From an uncultured Muribaculaceae bacterium (GTDB taxonomy: Bacteria; Bacillota_I; Bacilli_A; RF39; UBA660): a DNA stretch of 64,000 nt. Below the pieces are notes generated by a model that was not told the DNA's origin, did no database searches, and was given only the letters and a program-made list of their open reading frames with translations. A program made the position numbers and the translations under genes. The stretch is taken from positions 3,488 to 67,487 of the forward strand of contig CAYZRY010000002.1 of assembly GCA_964481005.1 (NCBI GenBank), written 5' to 3'. Positions 1,095 through 44,515 of the stretch are shown here, piece after piece (positions within the stretch are counted from its first letter, which is position 1; every line of letters begins with the position of its first letter).

Positions 1095-3902
1095 CTATAA
1101 GACTTTCTTCAAGAATTGACCGGTATACGATTTTGAACATTTAATTATTTCTTCAGGTGTACCACTGCAGATTATCTCTCCGCCTTTGTCTCCACCTTCA
1201 GGACCTATATCAATAATGTGATCTGCTGTCTTAATCATATCTAAGTTATGTTCAATGACCACTACTGTATCCTTATTATCTACTATTTTATTTATTATTG
1301 CAAGCAGGCTTTTAATATCGTGAGTGTGCAAACCAGTCGTTGGTTCATCAAGAATGAATAAGGTTTTACCAGTAGCTACTTTTTGCAATTCTTTGACTAG
1401 TTTAACACGGCTAGCTTCTCCACCAGATAAGGTAGGTGCACTTTGTCCAAGTTTGATATAACCAAGTCCTATTTCATTTAAGACTTTAAGTTTCTTTTTG
1501 ATTTTAGGAACATTTTCGAAAAACTCGTAAGCCTCGCTAACACGCATATCTAGCACATCAGCAATGTTTTTGTCTTTATATTTAATTCTGAGTGTTTCAC
1601 TGTTGTATCTAGTTCCATGACAAACTTCACAAGGAACGTAGACATCGGGTAAAAAGTGCATTTCAATCTTTTTAACACCGTCTCCGCGACAAGCTTCACA
1701 GCGACCACCCTTTACATTAAATGAGAAACGATCTTTTCCAAAGCCGTACATTTTAGCTTCTTTAGTATTGGTAAATAGGGTTCTAATTTCATCAAAGACA
1801 CCAGTGTATGTTGCTGGATTACTCCTTGGTGTTCTACCAATTGGTGACTGATCAATTTCGACAACTTTATCTATATGTTCAAGTCCCTTAATAGCTTTAT
1901 GCTTACCAACTGTTACTTTCGATTTATAGACCTTGTGCTGCGCAGCTTTAGCAAGAATGTCAATAATTAGACTTGATTTTCCCGAACCAGAAACTCCAGT
2001 TACACAAGTAAATTTACCAAGTGGAATGTCGACATCAATATTTTTTAAGTTGTTTTCACTAGCGCCTTGAATAGTAATTTTCTTACCTGTTCCCTCTCTT
2101 CGTACACTGGGAACATCTATCTTTTCTTTACCACTTAAATATCTTCCAGTTAAACTTTTTTCATTGGCCATGACTTCTTTTGGTGTGCCAGCGGCAACTA
2201 CTTTTCCACCCATGTCACCAGCAAGTGGACCTATATCAACCAAATAATCACTAGCTAGCATCGTATCACTATCATGTTCAACGACAATTAAAGTGTTACC
2301 AAGGTCTCTCATTTCAATCAAAGATTTAATTAACTTATCATTATCTCGCTGATGAAGACCAATACTTGGTTCATCTAGTACATAAAGTACTCCCGTAAGG
2401 CGTGATCCAATCTGCGTTGCTAATCTGATTCTTTGTGCTTCTCCACCAGATAAACTTCCAGCCATTCTAGCTAGTGTTAAATAATCGAGTCCAACGTTTA
2501 ATAGAAACTGTAGACGATTATTAATCTCGGCTATTAACACCCGAGAAATCTCTGTTTTTTCTGCAGATAGTTTTAAGCTCTTTAAAAAGTTATACAATTC
2601 TCCAATACTGAGACTAGTCACTTCATAAATATTTTTATTATTAATTTTAACTGAGAGTACTTCTCTTGAAAGACGAGCACCATTACAACTAGGACAAGTC
2701 TGTTCAATCATGTATCCTTCGATCCATTCACGTACCCAAGCACTAGTAGTTGAAAGATAACGTCGCTCTAAATTGTTAACAATTCCCTCGTACGGTTCTT
2801 TCTTGTTGTATACGTTTCCACCCTTAGAAACATAATTAAAGTGAATATTCTCATCACTACCATAAAAGATAATATCTTTTTCTTTTTGACTTAGTTTTTT
2901 AAATGGTTTATCAGTATCTATACCAAAATGTTTACAAACACATTCAAGCATTTGATTGTAGATATTTTCACTATCATCACCAAGAGTTCTAATAGCATAT
3001 TTATCAATCGATAACTCTTCGTCTGGTACTAGCAGATCAGGAGATACTCGTCTTTTAATTCCTAATCCATTACATTCTGGGCAGGCTCCATATGGCGAAT
3101 TAAAGCTAAACATACGTGGTTCAAGTTCAGGTAGTGAGAACGAACAGTGCGGACAAGCGAACTTCTCCGACATAATTATTTCTCCTTCGCCCTTTTTATC
3201 AATTAATACTTTCCCTCTAGCAAGTTTTGCTCCAGTTTCAAGTGCTTCAAAAAGTCTACTTCTAATACCTTCTTTTATAACTAGACGGTCGATAACTACA
3301 TCTATTTTATGTTTAATATTTTTTTCTAAACTAATTTCTTCGCTTAGATCTCTATCTTCTCCATCAACTCTGACCCTTACAAAACCATCACTTTTAAGTT
3401 TTTGTAAGAGATCTTTGTGCTCTCCTTTTTCACCATCGACAATCGGAGCCATGATAACTACTTTTGTACCTTCATCAAAAGACATAACTTTATTAGTCAT
3501 CTCTTCGATCGATTGACTACTTATTTCAACATGATGATCAGGACAGTAAACTGTTCCAATTCTAGCATATAGCAATCTCAAATAATCATATATTTCTGTG
3601 ACTGTTCCAACTGTTGAACGTGGATTGTTACTAGTTGTTTTTTGATCGATACTGATAGCGGGTGATAATCCTTCGATGGAATCGACATCAGGTTTTTCCG
3701 TCCCACCCAAAAACTGTCTAGCATAAGCGCTAAGACTTTCTACATATCTTCGTTGTCCTTCGGCATATATCGTATCAAAAGCTAAACTACTTTTCCCAGA
3801 ACCAGATACACCAGTCATGACAATCAGTGAATTTTTAGGAAGCTCGATATCAATATCTTTAAGATTATTCTCTCTAGCTCCCTTAATAATTATTTTATCC
3901 AT
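1095..3902 (-). CDS. uvrA: excinuclease ABC subunit A
   Basis: 935 aa with two ABC ATPase modules (GVSGSGKSSLAFDT.., GVSGSGKSSL..), zinc-finger Cys pairs, LSGGEAQR signatures. Confidence 0.96.
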   Translation of the reverse strand: MDKIIIKGARENNLKDIDIELPKNSLIVMTGVSGSGKSSLAFDTIYAEGQRRYVESLSAYARQFLGGTEKPDVDSIEGLSPAISIDQKTTSNNPRSTVGTVTEIYDYLRLLYARIGTVYCPDHHVEISSQSIEEMTNKVMSFDEGTKVVIMAPIVDGEKGEHKDLLQKLKSDGFVRVRVDGEDRDLSEEISLEKNIKHKIDVVIDRLVIKEGIRSRLFEALETGAKLARGKVLIDKKGEGEIIMSEKFACPHCSFSLPELEPRMFSFNSPYGACPECNGLGIKRRVSPDLLVPDEELSIDKYAIRTLGDDSENIYNQMLECVCKHFGIDTDKPFKKLSQKEKDIIFYGSDENIHFNYVSKGGNVYNKKEPYEGIVNNLERRYLSTTSAWVREWIEGYMIEQTCPSCNGARLSREVLSVKINNKNIYEVTSLSIGELYNFLKSLKLSAEKTEISRVLIAEINNRLQFLLNVGLDYLTLARMAGSLSGGEAQRIRLATQIGSRLTGVLYVLDEPSIGLHQRDNDKLIKSLIEMRDLGNTLIVVEHDSDTMLASDYLVDIGPLAGDMGGKVVAAGTPKEVMANEKSLTGRYLSGKEKIDVPSVRREGTGKKITIQGASENNLKNIDVDIPLGKFTCVTGVSGSGKSSLIIDILAKAAQHKVYKSKVTVGKHKAIKGLEHIDKVVEIDQSPIGRTPRSNPATYTGVFDEIRTLFTNTKEAKMYGFGKDRFSFNVKGGRCEACRGDGVKKIEMHFLPDVYVPCEVCHGTRYNSETLRIKYKDKNIADVLDMRVSEAYEFFENVPKIKKKLKVLNEIGLGYIKLGQSAPTLSGGEASRVKLVKELQKVATGKTLFILDEPTTGLHTHDIKSLLAIINKIVDNKDTVVVIEHNLDMIKTADHIIDIGPEGGDKGGEIICSGTPEEIIKCSKSYTGQFLKKVL

Positions 3903-25229: not shown

Positions 25230-25430
25230 TTAATATTTGATAACTTTTTTAACTTTTTTATTAAATTCTATTCTTGGAATAGTTACTATTCTACTGCAGT
25301 TATTACATTTTATTTTAATGTCTGCTCCTACTCTAGTTACTTCCCATTCGTTATGTCCACATGGATGAGCTTTTTTCATAATAACTTGTGAACCTAATTG
25401 AATATCTTTATTTTCCATATTGTTACTCAT
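25230..25430 (-). CDS. DUF951 family protein (YyzM-like)
   Basis: 66 aa with HPCG...WE(V)TR(V)GADIKIKC..C pattern, like B. subtilis YyzM; sits next to spo0J as in Bacillus. Confidence 0.75.
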   Translation of the reverse strand: MSNNMENKDIQLGSQVIMKKAHPCGHNEWEVTRVGADIKIKCNNCSRIVTIPRIEFNKKVKKVIKY

Positions 25431-26301
25431 CGATATTCATAATTTCTAAAATTCTATTTAGATCATTGACATTACTAAAGTATACTTCTAGGGTATTATT
25501 TCTGATTTTTACTCTAGTACCAAGTTTTTCAGAAAGACTATCTTCAAGATGACTAAACTGACTATTACTTGATTTTTTTGTTGTTTTAACTGGCTTTTCA
25601 CCACGAATTATATTTTCTGTCTGTCTGACATTTAAATTTTCATTAAGTATTTTTTCAACAAGTGCATCTACTTCCTCAGCAGTTTCAAGTTTACTTAAAA
25701 TTCTTGCATGACTGGCAGATATTTTATCTTTATTAATTAAATTTTTAACATGATCTGGCAAGTTTAATAGTCCTACCATGTTCGTAATATAGCTACGACT
25801 CTTACCAAGACGTTTAGCTAACTCTTCTTGCGTTATACGAAGCTTTTCAAGTAATTGCTTGTAAGCATTTGCTTCTTCAATAGCATTTAAATTTTCTCTT
25901 TGAAGATTCTCAAGTAGAGCTATTTCCATCATCTCATCATCAGTAAAATCTCTAACTATCGACGGGATAGTCTTTTTTCCTGCTATTTCACTAGCTTTAA
26001 CACGTCGTTCACCAGCTATTATTTCATAACCTTTAATTGAACTCTTTTTAACGATAATTGGCTGAATAACACCATGTTCTTTGATTGATTCAGCTAATTC
26101 ATCAAGCTTTTCAGCATCGAATATTTTTCTCGGTTGGTAAGGGTTGCTTCTAAGTTCATTAATGTTTAGTTCAACTATTTCATCTTTTGAAGTTGAATTT
26201 ACAATACTTTCTTCAATTGATGAAAAGTCCATCTTTTCATTACTGAACAACTCTTCTAAACCTTTACCCATTACTCTTCTTTTATTATCCATTTCTCTCA
26301 A
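25423..26301 (-). CDS. parB: chromosome partitioning protein ParB/Spo0J
   Basis: ParB N-domain (GERRVKAS), HTH segment LGKSRSYITNMVGLL carrying Arg at the parS-specificity position, C-terminal dimerisation domain. True start may be an internal Met (MDNKRR or MGKGLEELF). Confidence 0.9.
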   Translation of the reverse strand: MREMDNKRRVMGKGLEELFSNEKMDFSSIEESIVNSTSKDEIVELNINELRSNPYQPRKIFDAEKLDELAESIKEHGVIQPIIVKKSSIKGYEIIAGERRVKASEIAGKKTIPSIVRDFTDDEMMEIALLENLQRENLNAIEEANAYKQLLEKLRITQEELAKRLGKSRSYITNMVGLLNLPDHVKNLINKDKISASHARILSKLETAEEVDALVEKILNENLNVRQTENIIRGEKPVKTTKKSSNSQFSHLEDSLSEKLGTRVKIRNNTLEVYFSNVNDLNRILEIMNIDE

Positions 26302-27070
26302 TCACTTCCTTAGCTAAATTTAAATAAGCCTCAGTTCCTCTACATTTAGGATCGTACGCTACAATTGGTTTACCGTGCGATGGTGCCTCAGTTAATCTAA
26401 CTGATCTTGGGATGATTGTATTGTAAACTCTCTCTTTAAAATATTTTCTTATATCTTCGACTACATCAAATCCAATATTTGTTCTAGCATCGAGCATTGT
26501 CAGTAAAACTCCTTCAATATCTAGATTTGGATTTAAATTTTTCTTCGCCATCATTATCGAGTTGAGCAGTTGCATTATTCCCTCTAGTGCATAAAATTCA
26601 CACTGCACTGGAATTATTACTGAATCTGTTGCTGTAAGTGCATTAGTTGTGATCAGTCCAAGCGATGGTGGACAATCGATAATTATATAATCATATCTAT
26701 TTCTAACTGTATCTATTTTATTTTTAAATTGGGAACCCCTTTGGAAACCAGGCTCTTTTTGGCTTCTCTCCATAAGTTCCATGTCCAAACCTGCTAAATT
26801 TACTGTCGCTGGCAGGACATCTAATCTTTTGTATCTACTACTTAAAATAGCATCATCAATCTGGCACTTTTCCGTAATAACGTCATAGACGCTATATTGA
26901 AGTTCCCCCTTGTTAATACCCATTCCTGTCGTAGTATTTCCTTGTGGATCTAGATCGACAAGTAATACTTTTTTACCTAGTACTGCAATCGATGCAGAAA
27001 GATTTATACTAGTTGTTGTTTTTCCTACGCCACCCTTTTGGTTGACCAAAGATATTATCTTCCCCATCAA
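26285..27070 (-). CDS. parA: chromosome partitioning ATPase ParA/Soj
   Basis: Deviant Walker A KGGVGKTT, 261 aa. Confidence 0.92.
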   Translation of the reverse strand: MMGKIISLVNQKGGVGKTTTSINLSASIAVLGKKVLLVDLDPQGNTTTGMGINKGELQYSVYDVITEKCQIDDAILSSRYKRLDVLPATVNLAGLDMELMERSQKEPGFQRGSQFKNKIDTVRNRYDYIIIDCPPSLGLITTNALTATDSVIIPVQCEFYALEGIMQLLNSIMMAKKNLNPNLDIEGVLLTMLDARTNIGFDVVEDIRKYFKERVYNTIIPRSVRLTEAPSHGKPIVAYDPKCRGTEAYLNLAKEVIERNG

Positions 27071-27159: not shown

Positions 27160-28578
27160 TTATTTTGCTATTCTAACAACTATTTCCATAACTCCGTTGT
27201 TTACGGTGTTAACTAGTTCAACTTTGAATCCTTTACTCTCTAGTTCTCTTGTAATATTACCGATAGCAATATTAGCAAATTTGATTTCTTCACTAGCTGT
27301 AAAATCTGCTCCTGAAGCTGGTGTTGCAGCTTCTTGGACTGGAGCTTGAACTGCTTCGACTTGTGGTTCTACTTGAACAATTTGTGGAGCTGGCTCTGGT
27401 GTTACAAATGTTAAAGGTTCAATTGGGGCAACCGGAGCAATACTAGCATTTTCTTGTTCAATTATACCGCTTAGTCCATTTTGATTAACTGGTTGGATAT
27501 CGACAAGTTGTGGTGTCTGCTGAATTACAGGCATACCTGCAAGTAGTCCCTTACCGATAATTTCTTGACCATTAACTGGCTCTGGAGATGGAGTGCCAAG
27601 ATCTGGAATGAATCTGTTTTGCATTGCAACTTCTTCCTCACTCGGAGCTTCAGCTTTTAATAGTGAACTCATGTCAGCAACCTGTTTAAGACCACCTTGA
27701 TTAATGTCTGCTGCTTCTGATCTAATCTTATCGATATCAACAATTGTTTGATCAACTGCAACTGGCGAAACATCTAATGTCTCTACTTGCTGACTCTCTG
27801 CTTGAACAACTGGTGTATCAACTGGCTGAATAAATGTTGGTGCCGGGTTGATAAATGTTTCAAGTGGAGCTGGCGTCGGACTTACTACTTCGGCTGGCGC
27901 TTGAACTTGACTGTTTATTTGTGCTTCAAACGACGGTGTATTAACTTCAGCTATATTTGTATTTATTAAATTACTCTCTTCATTCATTCTCTTTATTCTT
28001 TCATCAACTTCTCTTACTGGAAGTCTTTTTTCTACTATCTCTTCAAGTAGAGTTAGTTGTTTACTACGATCAGATAAGTTAATTAAACTACGAGCATGAC
28101 GCTCAGATATCTGTTCTTTTAAAAGGGCTTGTTGAATTTCTTCAGGAAGACTTAATAGTCTTAATTTATTGGCAACCGAAGACTGAGATTTACCCATTGT
28201 TTTAGCAAGTTGTTCCTGAGTCAAATCATCTATATCTAAGATTTTTTGATAGGTTCTTGCTTCCTCAATCGGAGACAAATCTCTTCTTTGTAAATTTTCT
28301 ATTAAAGCTACTTTAGAACTTTCTTTATCATCGAAATTTTTAACTATCGCAGGAATAGTTGTCTTACCAACTAACGAAGATGCTTTATATCTTCTTTCTC
28401 CGGCAATAATCTCATACTTCTCACCAATTTTTCTAACTATGATTGGTTGAATTACTCCATGTTCTTTAATAGATACAGCTAACTCTTTTAATGCTTGATC
28501 ATCAAACACTTCACGTGGCTGAAACCTATTTGGAATAACATCATCCAAATGTAGTTGAATAATTTCTTCATTCTGCAT
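27160..28578 (-). CDS. noc: Noc-like ParB paralog with ~230-aa low-complexity insertion
   Basis: N-terminal 190 aa collinear with B. subtilis Noc (IPNRFQPR, HGVIQPIIVR, IAGERR, VALIENLQRRDLSPIEEA, MGKSQSSVANKLRLL, ISERHARSL). Gln/Lys in recognition helix where ParB has Arg/Met. Then a P/V/Q/A/E-rich linker, then a ParB-type C-terminal domain (..VMEIVVRIAK). Confidence 0.8.
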   Translation of the reverse strand: MQNEEIIQLHLDDVIPNRFQPREVFDDQALKELAVSIKEHGVIQPIIVRKIGEKYEIIAGERRYKASSLVGKTTIPAIVKNFDDKESSKVALIENLQRRDLSPIEEARTYQKILDIDDLTQEQLAKTMGKSQSSVANKLRLLSLPEEIQQALLKEQISERHARSLINLSDRSKQLTLLEEIVEKRLPVREVDERIKRMNEESNLINTNIAEVNTPSFEAQINSQVQAPAEVVSPTPAPLETFINPAPTFIQPVDTPVVQAESQQVETLDVSPVAVDQTIVDIDKIRSEAADINQGGLKQVADMSSLLKAEAPSEEEVAMQNRFIPDLGTPSPEPVNGQEIIGKGLLAGMPVIQQTPQLVDIQPVNQNGLSGIIEQENASIAPVAPIEPLTFVTPEPAPQIVQVEPQVEAVQAPVQEAATPASGADFTASEEIKFANIAIGNITRELESKGFKVELVNTVNNGVMEIVVRIAK

Positions 28579-28663
28579 ACAACAACCTCACTTTTTACCC
28601 TTTATTCTATGTATTATTATATTATATAATTTAATATAATACAATCTATTTTTAAAATACTAT

Positions 28664-28695
28664 AAACAAAAGAAAAAAGACTACTTATAGTCTTT
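28664..28695 (-). terminator. rho-independent terminator after rsmG
   Basis: Stem AAAGACTA-CTTA-TAGTCTTT followed on minus strand by UUUUUUUCU. Confidence 0.55.
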
Positions 28696-29409
28696 TTATA
28701 TCTTTAATTCTTTTTTAATTTTATCGATTGAACGCGGATATTTTTCTTTAGTTTTTTCTTCTTTTTCAAAAATTACAATGCTTCTCAAACTGTTTTCAAA
28801 TGGTAAATCAAAGGTAATAGTTTCAGCAAATTTAAGAGGTAGTTTTTGAGTATGATGAAGACTATTTATTAGTTCTTCATGAACATCACCCTTCATTAAA
28901 ATTAACTTCCCACCAAGCTTAATTGAGCGCGTTGAAATCTCTGCTAAGACAGCAGTGTTAGCTACTGCTCTAGCAGTTACAACATCAAATTTTTCAAGAT
29001 GTTTTTTTGAATAATCTTCCATTCTTCCGTGAACAGTTTCAATATCTTCCAGTTCTAATTTTTCGATAATTTCGTCTAAAAATTTAATACGTTTATTTAA
29101 AGAATCAATCAAGGTAACATGGATATTTGGAAAAAATATTTTAATCACTATACCAGGAAATCCAGCACCAGTTCCAACATCACAAAGACTATCAATATTA
29201 TTTAAATCAACTGCTTTGATTAATGTTAAACTATCATAAAAGTGCTTTAGATAAACTTCTTCTTTTTTGGTGATTGCGGTCAAATTTATTTTGTTATTCC
29301 ATTCAATTAATAACTCAAAATATTTTGTCAACTGACTCAATTTGATATCATTTATCTCGATTGTATTTGAGAGTTTTTTTACTTCTTCGACAAATTGTTT
29401 CTCAGTCAT
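28696..29409 (-). CDS. rsmG: 16S rRNA (guanine527-N7)-methyltransferase
   Basis: GidB family, SAM motif DVGTGAGFPG. Confidence 0.9.
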   Translation of the reverse strand: MTEKQFVEEVKKLSNTIEINDIKLSQLTKYFELLIEWNNKINLTAITKKEEVYLKHFYDSLTLIKAVDLNNIDSLCDVGTGAGFPGIVIKIFFPNIHVTLIDSLNKRIKFLDEIIEKLELEDIETVHGRMEDYSKKHLEKFDVVTARAVANTAVLAEISTRSIKLGGKLILMKGDVHEELINSLHHTQKLPLKFAETITFDLPFENSLRSIVIFEKEEKTKEKYPRSIDKIKKELKI

Positions 29410-31261
29410 GTTTACTCCTTTTTATATAAAGCGAAAGTATGCTAATATCACTTGGATTAACACCACTAATACGCATTGCTTGACCAAGTGAAGTTGGTCT
29501 TACTTCAGTTAGTTTTTGCTTTGCCTCATGAGCAATATTTTTTATTTTATTGTAGTCGATATCCTCGGGAATTAGCTCGTTTTCAAGATCCAGCATTTTA
29601 GCTGCTTCTTTATTTGCTTTGACAATATATCCAGCATATTTAATATTTATTTCGACCTCTTCATAAACTTCATTATCGAAATCTTCGCCTATATATTTTG
29701 TTAAATTTTGTATTTCTATCTCTGGTCTTTTTAATAAATCATAAAGAGTAATTCCATCTAATAAATGAGTCGATGAATATTCATTTAAAAACTCTTCGCT
29801 TTCTTTTCCAGGAACTAATTTTTTACTTTTTAAAATTTCTGTTAAACGGTCGATATCTTTAATTTTATTTTGAAATTTTGTGTATCTTTCTTCACTAAGT
29901 AAACCTATTTCTTTTCCGTAATCAGATAGTCTTAAATCGGCATTATCATTTCTTAAAAGAAGTCTATATTCTGCTCTCGAAGTTAATAGTCTATATGGAT
30001 CAATAACTCCTTTTGTAATTAAATCATCAATCAAAACCCCAATGTAAGCTTCACTTCTTTTTAGTACTAAAGCATCTTTATTATTTAGTTTATTGACAGC
30101 ATTTATTCCTGCCATTAAACCTTGACAAGCAGCTTCTTCATAACCACTTGTTCCATTAATTTGTCCGGCTGTAAATAAATTTTCGATGAGTTTTGTTTCA
30201 AGTGAGGCTTTTAATTGTCTAGCATCGATTGCGTCGTATTCGATAGCGTAAGCATATTTTTTAATAACTGCTTTTTCAAGCCCTGGCAAACTGTGAATCA
30301 TTTTTTCTTGAACATCTCTTGGCATGCTCGTTGAAAATCCTTGAACATAGATATCATCATAATAAATACTCTCTGGTTCTAAGAATATTTGATGTCTATC
30401 TTTATCAAAAAAACGAACAATTTTATCTTCGATTGATGGACAATATCTTGGTCCTATTCCTTCGACATATCCACCATACATACTAGATTTGTTTAAATTT
30501 TTATTAATTATTTCGTGTGTTTCAGGTGTTGTATAAATCAAATAACATGGTTCTTGATTTGCAGGATCGTAATATATTTTTCTATCGTGAGAAAAAGTCA
30601 AAGCTTCAGGATCTCCCTCTTGAATTATTCCTTTGCTATAATCAATTGAACTTTTTTCAAGTCTTGCTGGTGTACCTGTTTTCAATCTTTTGATTGTGAA
30701 ACCTAAATCACGTAGTTTTTCACTCAAAAACTTAGATGGTTCTTTTCCATCTGCGCCTTTACTAGTTTTTTCTGATCCAATTAGAATACTTGATTTTAAA
30801 TATGTACCTGTCGTTAAAATGACTACTTTAGAATATATCTTTTCACCATTTGCTAGAACTATTCCTTTGACAATTGAATCTTCGATTATTAGATCTTCGA
30901 CCATATCTTCTTTTATCTTGAGATTATTCTGATTTTCTAGTACTTCAAGCATATTTTTATGATATGTTACTTTATCTATTTGTGCTCTTAAAGCCCTAAC
31001 TGCTGGTCCCTTTTTAGTGTTTAACATCTTTAATTGCAAAAGACTTTTATCGGTATTTATACCCATTTCTCCGCCCAATGCATCTATTTCACGAACCACA
31101 ATACCTTTAGCTGGTCCACCTATCGATGGATTACAAGGAGTATCTGCTATATTTTTTAAATTACTACTTATTAGGAGAGTACTTTTTGAAAGTCTACTTG
31201 TTGCTAGCGAAGCTTCGCAACCAGCATGACCCCCACCTACTACTATTACATCATATTCCAT
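29402..31261 (-). CDS. mnmG: tRNA uridine 5-carboxymethylaminomethyl modification enzyme MnmG
   Basis: FAD-binding N-terminus YDVIVVGGGHAGCEA; 619 aa. Confidence 0.95.
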   Translation of the reverse strand: MEYDVIVVGGGHAGCEASLATSRLSKSTLLISSNLKNIADTPCNPSIGGPAKGIVVREIDALGGEMGINTDKSLLQLKMLNTKKGPAVRALRAQIDKVTYHKNMLEVLENQNNLKIKEDMVEDLIIEDSIVKGIVLANGEKIYSKVVILTTGTYLKSSILIGSEKTSKGADGKEPSKFLSEKLRDLGFTIKRLKTGTPARLEKSSIDYSKGIIQEGDPEALTFSHDRKIYYDPANQEPCYLIYTTPETHEIINKNLNKSSMYGGYVEGIGPRYCPSIEDKIVRFFDKDRHQIFLEPESIYYDDIYVQGFSTSMPRDVQEKMIHSLPGLEKAVIKKYAYAIEYDAIDARQLKASLETKLIENLFTAGQINGTSGYEEAACQGLMAGINAVNKLNNKDALVLKRSEAYIGVLIDDLITKGVIDPYRLLTSRAEYRLLLRNDNADLRLSDYGKEIGLLSEERYTKFQNKIKDIDRLTEILKSKKLVPGKESEEFLNEYSSTHLLDGITLYDLLKRPEIEIQNLTKYIGEDFDNEVYEEVEINIKYAGYIVKANKEAAKMLDLENELIPEDIDYNKIKNIAHEAKQKLTEVRPTSLGQAMRISGVNPSDISILSLYIKRSKHD

Positions 31262-31262
31262 A

Positions 31263-32618
31263 TTATTTACCTAAACAGAACTGACTAAATAGTGCATCGA
31301 GTAATTCATTTTCATAAGTTTCTCCAAGTATTTTTCCAAGTTCTTCCCAAATTCTTTTAATATCTATTTCAATCATATCTACATAATCACCATTACTTAA
31401 TGCTATTTCAACATCTTCAAGTATTTTTAGAGCTGATTTTGCCAAAGAAATTTGTCTAGTGTTTCCAAGTAATGCATGATCATTTTGATTGATTTGATTC
31501 AAATCTAGTATTTCATTTATTTTATCTTTTAATTTAACTATTTTTAAACTATCGATAGTATCTATTTCAATTACATTATCACTATCTATTTTAGATATAT
31601 CAATTTTTCTTTCTAAATCACATTTATTTATAACGGTAATAACTTTCTTTCCTTTGATGTTATCCATTATTTTTAAGTCTTCTTCGCTTAATTTTTCGTT
31701 ATTATTTAATACAAAGATTATTAAATCGGCTTTCTTACTAGCTTCAAGTGTTTTTTCAACTCCGATTTTTTCTACTACATCTTCGGTTTCTCTAATTCCG
31801 GCAGTATCTATCAAATTTAAAATAATTCCATCTATATTAATAGACCCTTCGACTATATCTCTTGTTGTTCCAGCAATTTCAGTAACAATTGCTTTATTCT
31901 CATCAAGTAATCTGTTAAGGATACTACTTTTTCCAACATTTGGTCTACCAATAATAGCAGTATTTATTCCACTTGAAAAAATTAAAGATCTTTCACTTTC
32001 TTCGATTATTTCTTTCAATTTATTTTTTACATGAACCATTGTTTCGGTAACTTTATTATTAGTAACTTGTTCTATATCTTCATATTCTGGATAATCTATA
32101 TTAACTTCAATATTAGCAATCAAATTTAACAAATCATTTCGAAGTTCTCTAATCATTTTGCTACTTGTTCCATCTATTTGTCTCATTGAAATATTTCGTG
32201 ATTGATCAGTTTGAGCTTTAATAATATCAGCAGTTGCTTCAGCTTCGACTAAATCGATACGTCCTCCGACAAAAGCTCTCTTAGTAAATTCACCAGGTTC
32301 AGCCAAGCGACATCCAGATAATAATAGTATCTCTAATATTTTCTTAGTTGTGGCAATTCCCCCATGGCAATTTATCTCAACTACATCTTCGGTTGTAAAT
32401 GTCTTTGGAGATCTCATAATCGACACTAAAACTTCATCAATTTTCTCGTTTTCAAACACTATAAAACCATGATTAATAGTATGACTATCAACCTTAGTTA
32501 AATCTTTTCCCTCAAAGAGTTTAGCAACTATTTCAATAGCTTCGCTTCCACTAGCTCTAACTATCGATATTGCTCCGGCTCCCATTGTTGTTGAAATTGC
32601 AGCAATTGTGTCTTTCAT
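31263..32618 (-). CDS. mnmE: tRNA modification GTPase MnmE
   Basis: G-domain GRPNVGKSS, C-terminal ..CLGK tail; 451 aa. Confidence 0.95.
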   Translation of the reverse strand: MKDTIAAISTTMGAGAISIVRASGSEAIEIVAKLFEGKDLTKVDSHTINHGFIVFENEKIDEVLVSIMRSPKTFTTEDVVEINCHGGIATTKKILEILLLSGCRLAEPGEFTKRAFVGGRIDLVEAEATADIIKAQTDQSRNISMRQIDGTSSKMIRELRNDLLNLIANIEVNIDYPEYEDIEQVTNNKVTETMVHVKNKLKEIIEESERSLIFSSGINTAIIGRPNVGKSSILNRLLDENKAIVTEIAGTTRDIVEGSINIDGIILNLIDTAGIRETEDVVEKIGVEKTLEASKKADLIIFVLNNNEKLSEEDLKIMDNIKGKKVITVINKCDLERKIDISKIDSDNVIEIDTIDSLKIVKLKDKINEILDLNQINQNDHALLGNTRQISLAKSALKILEDVEIALSNGDYVDMIEIDIKRIWEELGKILGETYENELLDALFSQFCLGK

Positions 32619-37671: not shown

Positions 37672-38124
37672 ATGAAAAATTATGAAATTAATGAAGATAC
37701 TATGGCTATTGTTCCAGTATCATATTATGAAAGTTTAATTAAAGAGAAGGATAGGGAATTCATTATTAACAACAATTCTTATAAAATAATGGAATATAGT
37801 TGTGAATATTATGGAAGTACTATCGGTGGTCGTTTAAAAGCAGCTAAAAAGATATTTGATTGTCCTTATAAGACACCGCTTTTAATCGAAGAAAGTGAAA
37901 ATATTATCTTTTTTCCGACTAAATCTGCCAAAGATGAAGATTGTTTATGGATTAATAATAATTATGTTGAAAAGATAATTAAAAAAGATGGAACAAGTGT
38001 CTTATTATTCACAAATGGTGATTCAATTAATATTAATACATCTAAGCTATCACTAGAAAATCAAGTTGCCAGATCAGCAAGATATGAAAACATATTAAGA
38101 AAAAGAAAATTATCTACAAAATAA
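37672..38124 (+). CDS. comK: ComK-family competence transcription factor homolog
   Basis: 150 aa. Blocks matching B. subtilis ComK as I remember it: AIVP, SCEYYGSTIGGRLKAAK (vs SCRFFGSSYAGRKAG), IIFFPTKS (vs IFLFPTLS), CLWIN (vs CGWIS), SLENQVARSARYENIL (vs SFENQVYRTAWLRTKF). Confidence 0.65.
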   Translation: MKNYEINEDTMAIVPVSYYESLIKEKDREFIINNNSYKIMEYSCEYYGSTIGGRLKAAKKIFDCPYKTPLLIEESENIIFFPTKSAKDEDCLWINNNYVEKIIKKDGTSVLLFTNGDSININTSKLSLENQVARSARYENILRKRKLSTK

Positions 38125-41270: not shown

Positions 41271-43754
41271 ATGGCAGATTTTTATAAAGATTTACAATTA
41301 TCACATGAAATAAAGAAGTCTTTTCTAGATTATGCAATGAGTGTAATTGTTTCACGTGCATTACCTGATGTAAAAGACGGATTAAAACCAGTTCAACGTA
41401 GAATTGTCTATGGAATGAATGAGCTTGGTGCAGTTGCAAGCAGTCCACATAAGAAAAGTGCTCGTATTACCGGAGATGTTATGGGTAAATATCATCCGCA
41501 CGGTGATTCAAGTATTTATGATGCACTAGTTAGGATGGCTCAGGACTTTTCATATCGTTATATGTTGGTCGATGGACACGGTAACTTTGGTTCAATTGAT
41601 GGAGATGGTGCTGCAGCACAACGTTATACTGAAGCCAGAATGTCTAAATTAAGTATGGAACTTGTTCGTGATATGAACAAAAACACAGTTGATTTTACTC
41701 AAAACTATGATGGTGAAGAGAAAGAACCGACAGTTTTGCCAGCAAGATTTCCAAACCTTTTAGTAAATGGATCAACAGGTATTGCAGTTGGTATGGCAAC
41801 TAATATACCACCACATAACCTAGGTGAAGTAATTGATGGAACGGTCGCATTATTAGATAATCCAGAGATCGATATTGATGGATTGATGGAATATATCAAA
41901 GGGCCAGACTTTCCAACAGGAGCAACAATTCTAGGAAATGCAGGTATCAAAAAAGGATACGAAACAGGACGCGGAATAGTTACAATTAGATCTAAAGCCG
42001 AAATTCATGAAATGGATAATGGAAAACATCAAATAATTGTTACAGAAATCCCGTATATGGTAAATAAAGCTAATTTAGTTACTAAAATTGCTGATTTAGT
42101 TAGAAATAAAAATATAGATGGTATCACTGATTTACGTGACGAATCTAGTATGAAGGGAATAAAAATTGTAATCGAAGTACGTCGCGATGCAAACGCTAAC
42201 GTTATTTTGAATCAATTATACAAACAAACTTCTCTTCAGCAAACGTTTGGTATCAACAGTATTGCGTTAGTTGATGGAGAACCTAGAACACTATCTATTA
42301 AAGAAATGCTTGAGAAATATATTGAACATCAAAAGATAGTTATAATTAGAAGAACTAGATTTGATTTAGAAAAAGCTGAAGCTAGAGAACATATATTACA
42401 TGGTTTAGCAATTGCGTTAGATAATATTGATGCTATTGTTAAAATGCTAAAAGAGTCACCAGATGATGAAACAGCAACTAAAAATTTGATAAATACATTT
42501 AATTTAACTGAAATTCAAGCAAAAGCTATTCTAGAAATGAAACTTCGCCGATTAACTGGTCTAGAAAGAGACAAAATTAATCAAGAGTTAGAAGAATTAA
42601 AGAATTTAATTATTGAACTTAATTCAATTCTCCAAGATGATCAAAAAGTTATTAATATTATTAAAACCGAATTGTTAGAAATCAAAGATAAATACGGAGA
42701 TGAGCGAAGAACTAATATTGATATGAGTTCAATCGATTACATCGAAGATGAGTCATTGATCCCTGAAGAGAACATACTAATAACACTAACTAACAAAGGT
42801 TATATTAAACGCGTAGTAAATGACACATTTAAAACTCAAAACCGTGGAGGCGTTGGTATTAAAGGGATTACAACTAATGAAGAGGACTTCCCAGAGAAAA
42901 TAATGTCAATGAATACTCATGATTTCGTCTTACTGTTTAGTAATTACGGAAAAGTATACAGAATTAAAGGTTATGAAATTCCTGAGTTTAGTAGACAATC
43001 AAAAGGATTGCCAATAATTAATTTATTACCAATCGAAAAAGAAGAAAAAATAACTTCATCAATAATGATCAAAGCTGAAGAAGAAGAAAGTAAATATCTT
43101 ATCTTCGTTACAAAAGATGGTTTAATTAAAAGAACTGATCTAAGTGAATTTGACAGTATTAGAAAAAATGGTAAGATTGCAATTCTTCTTAAAGAAGGAG
43201 ACGAGTTAATAGCTGTTAGAAAATCTGATGGTTCAAAAGAAGTAGCAGTCGCTGCAAGTAATGGACGTATGGTTAGATTCGATGAAAATGAAGTTAGAGT
43301 AATGGGACGTAATAGTTCTGGAGTTAAAGCGATTAACTTTGAAGATGATAAAGTCATAGGTGCCGAAGTAGTAGATGCTGAATCTGAAATACTTGTTATT
43401 ACCGAAAACGGTTACGGTAAGAGAACAACTGTAGATGAATATCGTCTAACACATCGTGGAAGCAAAGGAGTTAAAGCTCTAAATATTACTGAAAAGAACG
43501 GTAAATTAGTTTCTATGAAATGTGTTTACGGTGATGAAGATATTGTCATCATCACTGATTTAGGAATGCTAATTAGAATTTCAACTGACGGAATATCTAA
43601 GTTAGGAAGAACAACTCAAGGAGTTAAACTTATCAATCTTAAAGAAGATCAAAAAGTTTCAACTGTTACAACTATTAGTAAAGAAGAGGAAAACAACGAA
43701 GAAACAACTGAAGAAATTGTTGAAGAACTTGAAAATTCCGAAGAAATAATATAA
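41271..43754 (+). CDS. gyrA: DNA gyrase subunit A
   Basis: 827 aa, catalytic Tyr region (..[27 protein letters not shown]..), C-terminal beta-pinwheel repeats, acidic tail. Confidence 0.96.
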
Positions 43755-43756
43755 AA

Positions 43757-43846
43757 TGTAAATGATGCAATGGATTGTATTAGAACCAGGTCAGGATAGG
43801 AATATAGCAGCCTTAATAGTTCTAATCCATGTGCATCATTTTTTTG
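43757..43846 (+). ncRNA. ffs: signal recognition particle RNA, small (4.5S-type, single hairpin)
   Basis: ACCAGGTCAGGATAGGAATATAGCAGCC matches SRP RNA domain IV (E. coli ACCAGGUCAGGUCCGGAAGGAAGCAGCC), with the GGAA tetraloop and both conserved loop strands intact. Closed by long stem AAATGATGCA-ATGGATT ... AATCCAT-GTGCATCATTT and terminal U7. Only ~100 nt between gyrA and tadA, so small type. Confidence 0.8.
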
Positions 43847-43855
43847 AGGTAATTT

Positions 43856-44289: not shown

Positions 44290-44333
44290 ATGTTTCACGT
44301 GAAACATCAAAAATTATTTCCCGGGAAATAATT
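44290..44333. promoter_or_regulatory. composite parS + Noc-binding-site palindromes, copy 1
   Basis: ATGTTTCACGTGAAACAT (perfect 18-bp palindrome containing exact parS TGTTTCACGTGAAACA) at 44290-44307; 4-bp spacer; AATTATTTCCCGGGAAATAATT (22-bp perfect palindrome containing NBS core ATTTCCCGGGAAAT) at 44312-44333. Confidence 0.8.
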
Positions 44334-44352
44334 TGAAACAAAAAACTAAGCA

Positions 44353-44397
44353 ATGTTTCACGTGAAACATTAATAAATTATTTCCCGGGAAATAATT
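44353..44397. promoter_or_regulatory. composite parS + Noc-binding-site palindromes, copy 2
   Basis: Identical 18-bp parS palindrome 44353-44370, 5-bp spacer, identical 22-bp NBS palindrome 44376-44397. Confidence 0.8.
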
Positions 44398-44471
44398 TAA
44401 CACATAAAATTATAAAAAATGTACTAATAAATCATTTTTAAAAACTTGAAAATATAATACATAACAATCTA

Positions 44472-44515
44472 ATGTTTCACGTGAAACATTAGAAATTATT
44501 TCCCGGGAAATAATT
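44472..44515. promoter_or_regulatory. composite parS + Noc-binding-site palindromes, copy 3
   Basis: Identical 18-bp parS palindrome 44472-44489, 4-bp spacer, identical 22-bp NBS palindrome 44494-44515. Confidence 0.8.

Follow-up and report, generated by a model that had tools for sequence, protein, structure and literature searches.

An anchor-less Noc orthologue with a long acidic linker, and interleaved parS and NBS sites near the origin, in uncultured gut Bacilli

A 64,000-nucleotide stretch of DNA from an uncultured Muribaculaceae bacterium (GTDB lineage RF39, UBA660; positions 3,488 to 67,487 of contig CAYZRY010000002.1, assembly GCA_964481005.1), hereafter the window, encodes on its reverse strand a complete protein of the ParB/Noc family, the subject of this analysis. 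The gene is flanked upstream by rsmG, with mnmG and mnmE beyond it, and downstream by parA/soj and parB/spo0J, after which the open reading frame (ORF) list places a DUF951 gene on the same strand. This is the classical oriC-proximal rsmG-noc-soj-spo0J order of Bacillota; the GC skew of the window changes sign at ~35–36 kb, and dnaA-dnaN lie beyond on the plus strand. Because of this synteny, the gene is, on its position and sequence, the orthologue of noc and not an extra paralogue. The original prediction, made from the letters of the window, had called it a Noc paralog, correctly as to Noc and incorrectly as to paralogy. Database sources name the long-linker Noc proteins described here only ‘ParB/RepB/Spo0J family partition protein’.

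The N-terminal half of the Noc orthologue is covered by two Pfam domains, ParB_N (E = 4.6e-34) and HTH_ParB, a helix-turn-helix domain (E = 1.9e-33), and no Pfam match, ParB_C included, was found in the 272 residues that follow residue 200. Residues 3–201 align without large gaps with residues 27–227 of B. subtilis Noc at 51.7% identity, and the co-resident ParB stands at 48.5%, so that overall sequence identity barely separates Noc from ParB here. Against the nucleoid_noc model TIGR04285, the Noc orthologue scores 280.8 bits (model positions 1–203) and the co-resident ParB 247.3 bits. The curated whole-protein cut-off of 315 bits is not reached by the Noc orthologue, because its C-terminal domain has diverged and is set apart by a 228-residue insertion. 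The best solved relatives by sequence are the Noc structures 7nfu, 7ng0 and 7ol9; those of Geobacillus and B. subtilis score 230 and 212 bits, and B. subtilis ParB 184 bits. Over residues 1–200, identity to solved Noc structures is 52–55%. Fold comparison of an AlphaFold2 (AF2) model places Geobacillus and B. subtilis Noc best, at 55% and 51% identity, and the DNA-binding domain of the model superposes at 1.3–1.6 Å on the complex of the Noc DNA-binding domain with the Noc-binding site (NBS), 6y93. A Foldseek search with the full model recovered known Noc and ParB structures for the N-terminal half only, and no solved structure for the C-terminal domain or for the conserved islands of the linker described below.

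The recognition helix reads MGKSQSSVANKLRLL (residues 128–142), and the corresponding string of the co-resident ParB is LGKSRSYITNMVGLL. The specificity positions 173, 179, 184 and 201 of the ParB/Noc family are occupied by the quartet Q-K-S-R; the co-resident ParB has Arg at 173 and Ser at 201. Mutagenesis by Jalal et al. established that Q173 together with R201 switches the preference of ParB from parS to NBS, and that a single permissive Lys at 179 or 184 suffices for the switch (PMC7383237). Because Q132, K138 and R160 of the window protein fit these published rules, the Q-K-S-R set predicts NBS specificity. The N-terminus, specificity residues and linker were compared across 205 related Noc proteins, which include 85 species-level loci from metagenome-assembled genomes (MAGs). 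All 205 carry Q-K-x-R, where x is S, A, T, G, V, E, D or N and never K. Box II reads GERRYK, its final Arg changed to Lys, in the window protein and in 202 of the 205, and PNRFQPR and IENLQRRDL are invariant across the long-linker Noc family. Taken from sequence, the conclusion that the protein retains a cytidine triphosphate (CTP)-binding N-terminal domain and a predicted NBS-specific DNA-binding domain is strongly supported. Several statements of the original prediction are thereby upheld: the Noc-like character of the first 190 residues, both quoted strings, and the Gln and Lys at Noc specificity positions, where ParB-type residues were looked for and are not present.

The C-terminal end, for which a ParB-type dimerisation domain had been proposed, turned out differently. 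Pfam detects ParB_C neither in the window protein nor in the five relatives examined, and finds it in the neighbouring ParB. In four of these five relatives, the C-terminal domain matches TIGR04285 positions 207–255 (E 1e-6 to 2.5e-3); the window protein’s own segment falls below the threshold and aligns with the C-terminal domains of the relatives. The AF2 model builds this segment as one helix and two strands. A Noc-type C-terminal dimerisation domain is thus probable from sequence and model. At the other end, the Noc orthologue begins MQNEEIIQLHL and lacks the N-terminal ParA-interacting peptide (LG[KR]GLxxLF), which the co-resident ParB has together with ParB_C (PF23552). As listed, the ORF of that ParB opens at a TTG codon, giving MREMDNKRRVMGKGLEELF, and the ParA-contacting peptide starts at an internal Met (MGKGLEELF), whose ATG may be the true start. 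Box II of the same ParB is GERRVK, and its specificity position 201 is Ser instead of Gly.

Noc reportedly carries an N-terminal amphipathic membrane-targeting helix, a description said to go back to Adams in 2015. In the structural account of canonical Noc, helix α1 and helix α2 are Noc-specific additions released by the CTP switch for membrane binding; the helix docks on the N-terminal domain, which couples it to the switch, and B. subtilis Noc without it is impaired in nucleoid occlusion (PMC8429893). In the window protein, fourteen residues, MQNEEIIQLHLDDV, precede IPNRFQPR, one more than the 13 first counted. Residues 2–4 align with residues 24–27 in Noc chains whose N-terminus is complete, and with residue 2 of the NΔ26 construct 7ng0. 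Judged by this alignment, an N-terminal extension of roughly 26 residues is gone, and with it the amphipathic membrane-targeting helix α1, helix α2 and the connecting loop. The original prediction had rightly seen a reduced membrane-targeting stretch; ‘much shorter’ understated the change, since an in-frame stop four codons upstream of the ATG bars any upstream extension, and the stretch is absent altogether. The same holds for the family: all 205 relatives have 14–21 residues ahead of PNRFQPR, and in the 85 species-level loci the open frame before this motif has a median length of 22 codons, too short for a hidden helix. A hydrophobic-moment scan gave no amphipathic signal in the N-terminus. 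A membrane helix encoded from a hidden start further upstream was considered and rejected, given the in-frame stop and the short upstream frames of the 85 relatives.

Between the DNA-binding and C-terminal domains lies the linker, described at first as about 230 residues rich in Pro, Val and Gln, a length and composition that held up: it has 228 residues, with P 12%, A 11%, V 11%, Q 10% and E 9%, and with 31 Asp and Glu to 6 Lys and Arg. Disorder is predicted, the AF2 confidence score (predicted local distance difference test, pLDDT) being below 50 for residues 211–426 except for a short helix at 282–288 (pLDDT ~74). The linker DNA has a GC content of 41.7%, compared with 32% in the rest of the gene, and Tandem Repeats Finder (TRF) found no tandem repeats in it. 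An independent Logan assembly, SRR35836907, encodes an identical 472-residue Noc protein. A collapsed repeat or assembly artefact, the outcome that had been named as fatal to the linker, was rejected on the lack of repeats, on the independent assembly and on the presence of the same architecture in relatives. Low complexity, as first stated, is not the whole story, for the linker contains three conserved islands (Table 1). Island 1 conforms to a helix-like family motif, [IV]D[IL][DN]x[IL][KR]xx[AS]xDI, after which comes DxxLL; island 2 is one of the motifs of the type [KRT]F[IV]xP, represented in the window protein by TFINP, TFIQP, RFIPD and TFVTP; and island 3 has, in the clade of the window protein, the motif E[VI]IGxGLLAGMPVI. 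As a lead only, part of island 3 (IGKGLLAGM) resembles in sequence the ParA-contacting peptide of co-resident ParBs (ALGKGLEELF), its Lys not being conserved.

Across the 205 relatives, the linker is 21–348 residues long (median 239, and above 90 in nearly all), and its net charge runs from −47 to 0 (median −21), zero or negative in every one. Composition is not conserved between clades, the linker being P/V/Q/A-rich in the window protein and N/S/F-rich elsewhere. Many relatives (P0008, P0010, P0030, P0032 and others; locus L171, 285–1979) have an N/S-rich linker with up to 10 SLFG, NLFG or LFG repeats, and linkers of the SLFG/NLFG type give weak matches to the Pfam family Nucleoporin_FG (PF13634). 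Compared with L169, the closest relative for which DNA was available, the ratio of nonsynonymous to synonymous substitution rates (dN/dS) is roughly 0.07 in the N-terminal half, 0.12 in the C-terminal domain and 0.21 in the linker, or 0.32 in the linker without its islands. These rough values argue against neutral drift of the linker and point to purifying selection on it. It looks functional because its length and negative charge are kept, its islands are conserved and its dN/dS is 0.2–0.3. A phmmer search with residues 272–472 against 1.84 billion representative proteins returned four matches, all of them long Noc proteins; the tail, as we also call the linker, is therefore without relatives beyond the Noc family and offers no clue to a partner. 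A crude hydrophobic-moment scan, which a non-helical lipid-binding motif would escape, found no cationic amphipathic segment in the tail, outside the folded domains.

Table 1. Features of the noc locus and the parS-NBS array (positions in the window)
Feature	Position	Strand	Basis or remark
noc orthologue, coding sequence, complete	27160..28578	-	ORF list; 472 residues plus stop codon
N-terminus MQNEEIIQLHLDDVI	28534..28578	-	net charge −4; begins at strand β1 of the Noc N-terminal domain
ParB/Noc N-terminal (CTP-binding) domain, residues 5–97	28288..28566	-	Pfam ParB_N; motifs PNRFQPR, GERRYK, IENLQRRDL
Helix-turn-helix DNA-binding domain, residues 100–199	27982..28281	-	Pfam HTH_ParB; AF2 pLDDT 84–94
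Recognition region, residues 128–163	28090..28197	-	Q132, K138, S143, R160 = specificity positions 173, 179, 184, 201
Acidic linker, residues 201–428 (228 residues)	27295..27978	-	net charge −25; predicted disordered
Island 1, residues 276–300, DQTIVDIDKIRSEAADIN	27679..27753	-	family conservation; D-x-x-LL then at ~310
Island 2, residues 321–326, NRFIPD	27601..27618	-	related to TF[IV]xP copies at 241, 248, 390
Island 3, residues 339–352, EIIGKGLLAGMPVI	27523..27564	-	clade of the window protein only; regular-expression match in 65/205 relatives
C-terminal domain, residues 429–472	27163..27294	-	AF2 helix 428–448, strands 452–460 and 463–471, pLDDT 78–89
rsmG-noc intergenic region	28579..28695	-	hairpin and T-run after rsmG; Shine-Dalgarno GTGAGG; in-frame stop 4 codons before ATG
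rsmG	28696-29409	-	upstream neighbour of the noc orthologue
mnmG	29402-31261	-	neighbour beyond rsmG
mnmE	31263-32618	-	neighbour beyond mnmG
parA/soj	26285..27070	-	directly downstream of the noc orthologue; ORF; ParA-type Pfam families on the orthologous gene in related loci
parB/spo0J, co-resident	25423..26301	-	R at position 173, MGKGLEELF N-terminal peptide, ParB_C domain
parS-NBS array	44291..44512	.	three perfect parS, each followed by a perfect NBS; exact 16-mers; tadA-dnaX intergenic

The putative binding sites of the two proteins lie together on the far side of the origin, in an array already pointed out in the original prediction. Perfect copies of NBS, TATTTCCCGGGAAATA, occur three times in the window, at 44315, 44379 and 44497, and perfect copies of parS, TGTTTCACGTGAAACA, at 44291, 44354 and 44473. 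Each NBS lies 8–9 bp downstream of a perfect parS, and all three fall within 222 bp; in 100 shuffles, none reached 3 NBS-like or 5 parS-like matches. The array comes just after gyrA and the signal recognition particle (SRP) RNA gene, ~8–9 kb from oriC. That small SRP RNA gene (43754–43852, plus strand; Rfam RF00169, 67.6 bits) lies between gyrA and tadA, directly upstream of the array, and is the only Rfam match at gathering level in the 64 kb.

Metagenome contigs were scanned for exact matches to the pattern parS-N(6–14)-NBS, which gave 84 stretches, 80 of them analysed. All but one of the 80 are of low GC content (0.22–0.31) and show the gyrA-tadA-dnaX-yaaK-recR context; their GyrA is 52–67% identical to that of the window, and often 2–7 pairs occur per locus. 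A sample chosen independently of the sites, seven DnaN homologues on long contigs with 10 kb on either side, gave the same picture: clusters of perfect parS and NBS lie between gyrA and dnaX in all seven loci, in six of them with at least one NBS within 40 bp of a parS, and each of the six that include noc encodes an anchor-less Noc, of 341–564 residues. Among loci that span gyrA to dnaX, parS and NBS are co-clustered in eight of eight. The spacing of the pairs is clade-specific, 24–25 bp with parS first in the clade of the window and 27–28 bp with NBS first in another. In the window and in loci L084–L163 and L169–L175, interleaved parS and NBS stand 24–28 bp apart, centre to centre, and a single locus can hold as many as 8 NBS and 10 parS. 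No parS was found within 10 kb of noc itself. A single perfect NBS, at a position that is conserved, lies ~2.7 kb upstream of noc in several relatives (L026 at 7333, L042 at 7319, L045 at 7119, L058 at 7272, L074 at 7161, L077 at 7243, L080 at 7285), which is the mnmG-mnmE region; in L173 (4589) and L174 (4124), it occupies the gap between both genes, and the window is without such a site.

The architecture of the window protein is that of a family. The 120 best database homologues, of 364–593 residues, all have the same build, as do all 205 compared relatives, 85 of which come from species-level MAGs of uncultured gut or rumen Bacilli. A scan of one genome per species yielded 584 relatives; the best 80 of these are all uncultured gut or rumen MAGs, labelled Bacilli, Tenericutes, Erysipelotrichaceae, in a few cases Muribaculaceae, Clostridium sp. 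or ‘bacterium’, as well as Clostridium sp. CAG:417 and Candidatus Onthousia. This group may correspond to the GTDB order RFN20; NCBI places Candidatus Onthousia in Bacilli incertae sedis. The protein has most of the features by which Noc is recognised, but lacks the membrane helix that defines the current mechanism. A search of the available literature found no account of a helix-less Noc, of a Noc with a long or disordered linker or of composite parS-NBS arrays.

Two further observations concern the origin region of these genomes. Between dnaN and recF (37672–38124 of the window, plus strand) lies a gene for a protein of the ComK family (Pfam PF06338, E = 1e-37), and this gene is kept at the same position in every related locus fetched (L001 309–767, L169 11204–11656 and others). 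The corresponding position in B. subtilis is, presumably, that of yaaA, a gene for a small RNA-binding protein; an oriC cluster with a fixed homologue of a competence regulator is unusual. In L175 (1–6400), a gene for an rve-type integrase and unknown ORFs take the place of mnmE-mnmG-rsmG-noc-soj to the left of jag/yidC/rnpA; its gyrA-tadA region retains 7 NBS and 6 parS, and noc presumably lies elsewhere in that genome.

The original prediction had ventured a modified mechanism of nucleoid occlusion or segregation. That suggestion is considerably strengthened, because the Noc that lacks the anchor and has a long linker is conserved throughout the lineage together with the interleaved clusters of parS and NBS. 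We favour, with modest confidence, a reading in which the protein is an NBS-specific CTP clamp that is loaded beside ParB near the origin and whose effector is the disordered tail, not a membrane helix. By analogy with characterised ParB and Noc proteins, it would load at NBS, close as a CTP-gated sliding clamp and spread over the same origin-proximal DNA as ParB. Direct tethering to the membrane through a CTP-released helix would, from the anatomy, be impossible. In its stead, an acidic tail of 90–350 residues, predicted to be disordered, separates the clamp from the dimerisation domain and carries [IV]D[IL][DN]x[IL][KR], DxxLL, [KRT]F[IV]xP and GxGLLAGMPVI as short, conserved, hydrophobic or aromatic motifs. 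The tail is the likely effector because its length, charge and motifs are conserved; it could act at the origin by displaying partner-binding motifs in many copies, or as a bulky brush of negative charge, an effector step that we infer from anatomy. The outcome would be a Noc activity that is focused on the origin or centromere and coupled to ParB, and not a distributed, membrane-mediated nucleoid occlusion. Premature assembly of the Z-ring is prevented in B. subtilis by Spo0J and Noc together (PMC6852036), and in S. aureus, the initiation of replication is reportedly under the control of Noc (PMC5540599); by analogy, these precedents make an origin-focused role plausible. A bolder form of the proposal, which we put forward only tentatively and regard as rather doubtful, is that Noc, elsewhere a distributed division inhibitor that tethers DNA to the membrane, has become in this lineage a CTP clamp bound, like ParB, at the centromere. 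Each parS-NBS pair would in that case belong to a bipartite centromere on which ParB and Noc are loaded side by side, and the tail, which in many relatives resembles FG repeats, would attract a partner or build a condensate or brush around the origin, coupling origin segregation to the control of division or replication.

Several observations weigh against the favoured reading of a tail-driven, origin-loaded clamp. CTP binding, sliding, NBS preference and the lack of membrane binding are all inferred. Box II is GERRYK where canonical ParB and Noc have GERRxR, a change also present in the co-resident ParB, and K184 is absent, replaced by Ser, which may lower affinity. The genomic view comprised 64 kb of the source genome and ~20-kb pieces of relatives, and NBS may also be scattered genome-wide, as in B. 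subtilis. Low pLDDT hints at disorder without proving it; the islands are clade-specific (island 1 in 131/205 relatives, island 3 in 65/205), with no universal partner motif evident; and dS is near saturation, which leaves dN/dS rough. Finally, the hydrophobic GLLAGMPVI could insert into the membrane or bind lipid and have been missed by the crude scan.

This last point leads to an explanation in which the protein is still a classical nucleoid-occlusion factor, with the membrane contact shifted to an element of the tail, such as island 3 (EIIGKGLLAGMPVI), or handed over to a partner in the membrane that recognises the tail motifs. This would fit the conserved, hydrophobic nature of the islands and the retention of all other Noc features, and a long flexible tether would bring the chromosome-bound clamp to the membrane. 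We nonetheless consider such a relocation unlikely, given that the tail is strongly anionic (net −25, with 6 Lys or Arg in 228 residues) and without a cationic amphipathic window, that island 3 includes Gly and Pro and is present in no more than about one relative in three, and that a motif ~140 residues past the DNA-binding domain could not be gated by CTP in the manner of the docked canonical helix. The tail could instead have expanded as low-complexity sequence, for the most part neutrally, in a lineage that evolves fast and has reduced genomes, leaving an NBS clamp whose effector function is lost or decaying. The great differences in tail composition and length (21–348 residues) between clades would fit such an expansion, as would the finding of only four tail relatives in 1.84 billion representatives and the loss of the anchor, itself a change of the loss-of-function type. 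This view is difficult to reconcile with the extreme conservation of the N-terminal half, the maintenance of perfect NBS arrays, a charge that is zero or negative in 205 of 205 proteins, a length above 90 residues in nearly all, conserved islands, a dN/dS of ~0.3 even outside them and a tail GC content of 41.7% that opposes the AT bias of the genome; we judge this explanation improbable.

It is very improbable indeed that the protein is a second ParB, binding parS and taking a direct part in ParABS segregation, with the NBS-like sites unrelated to it. In its favour, the gene is directly upstream of parA, the protein is little closer in identity to Noc (51.7%) than to the co-resident ParB (48.5%), and its score lies below the curated Noc cut-off. 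What decides against this explanation are Gln and not Arg at 173 and Arg and not Gly at 201, the very residues that switch specificity from parS to NBS (PMC7383237), a C-terminal domain probably of Noc type with no ParB_C, the missing LG[KR]GL peptide, and a genome that retains both a normal ParB and perfect NBS sites.

The closest known system is Noc (YyaA) of B. subtilis, Geobacillus thermoleovorans and S. aureus, which occupies the same rsmG-noc-soj-spo0J slot by oriC and shares the CTP motifs, a helix-turn-helix domain at 50–55% identity, Q173, K179 and R201, the same NBS TATTTCCCGGGAAATA and, probably, the helix-plus-two-strand type of C-terminal domain. Unlike these proteins, the window protein and its relatives lack α1, α2 and the loop, the window protein starting where the NΔ26 crystallisation construct starts; K184 is changed among them to Ser, Ala or Thr; an acidic, motif-bearing segment of 90–350 residues takes the place of the short basic linker of B. 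subtilis Noc; and, in the regions seen, NBS occurs in clusters close to the origin, interleaved with parS. Chromosomal ParB/Spo0J has the same two-domain CTP-clamp fold at 46–49% identity; the noc orthologue lies by parA as parB does, and the Noc loading sites lie beside parS. In contrast to ParB, the window protein has Q/R and not R/G at 173/201, no ParA-stimulating peptide (ALGKGLEELF in the co-resident ParB), probably another type of C-terminal domain and the long acidic insertion. Weaker fold matches link it to Myxococcus PadC (6ryk) and RK2 KorB (8qa8/8qa9), in which a ParB-type CTP module is combined with a lineage-specific effector instead of ParA; at 19–32% identity, those proteins recognise other DNA or none, and no long disordered segment joins their domains for DNA binding and dimerisation.

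In Caulobacter, the PopZ-ParB hub tethers the origin next to ParB, and PopZ uses an acidic, proline-rich disordered region. With this hub and with S. aureus RicO, the resemblance is a functional analogy only, that of an origin or centromere factor linked to another cell structure, with no sequence relationship. RicO reportedly anchors origins to the membrane, and the preprint discusses an amphipathic helix (bioRxiv 10.64898/2026.03.06.710092), which is exactly the feature missing in the window Noc.

In the current mechanism of Noc, the CTP switch frees the N-terminal amphipathic helix, and clamp-bound DNA is pulled to the membrane. The lineage described here separates the NBS-bound CTP clamp from the membrane tether. 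At least 85 species-level genomes of common gut or rumen bacteria keep a clamp predicted to be NBS-specific, together with perfect NBS, and have lost the helix and gained an acidic tail. The parS/NBS pairs at 24–28 bp raise the question of how a pair of sliding, paralogous clamps that load only a few helical turns from each other would share the DNA or compete for it. If true, the bipartite centromere would represent a coupling mechanism not described for any ParB-family protein. These genomes thus constitute a natural experiment on what else a Noc clamp can do.

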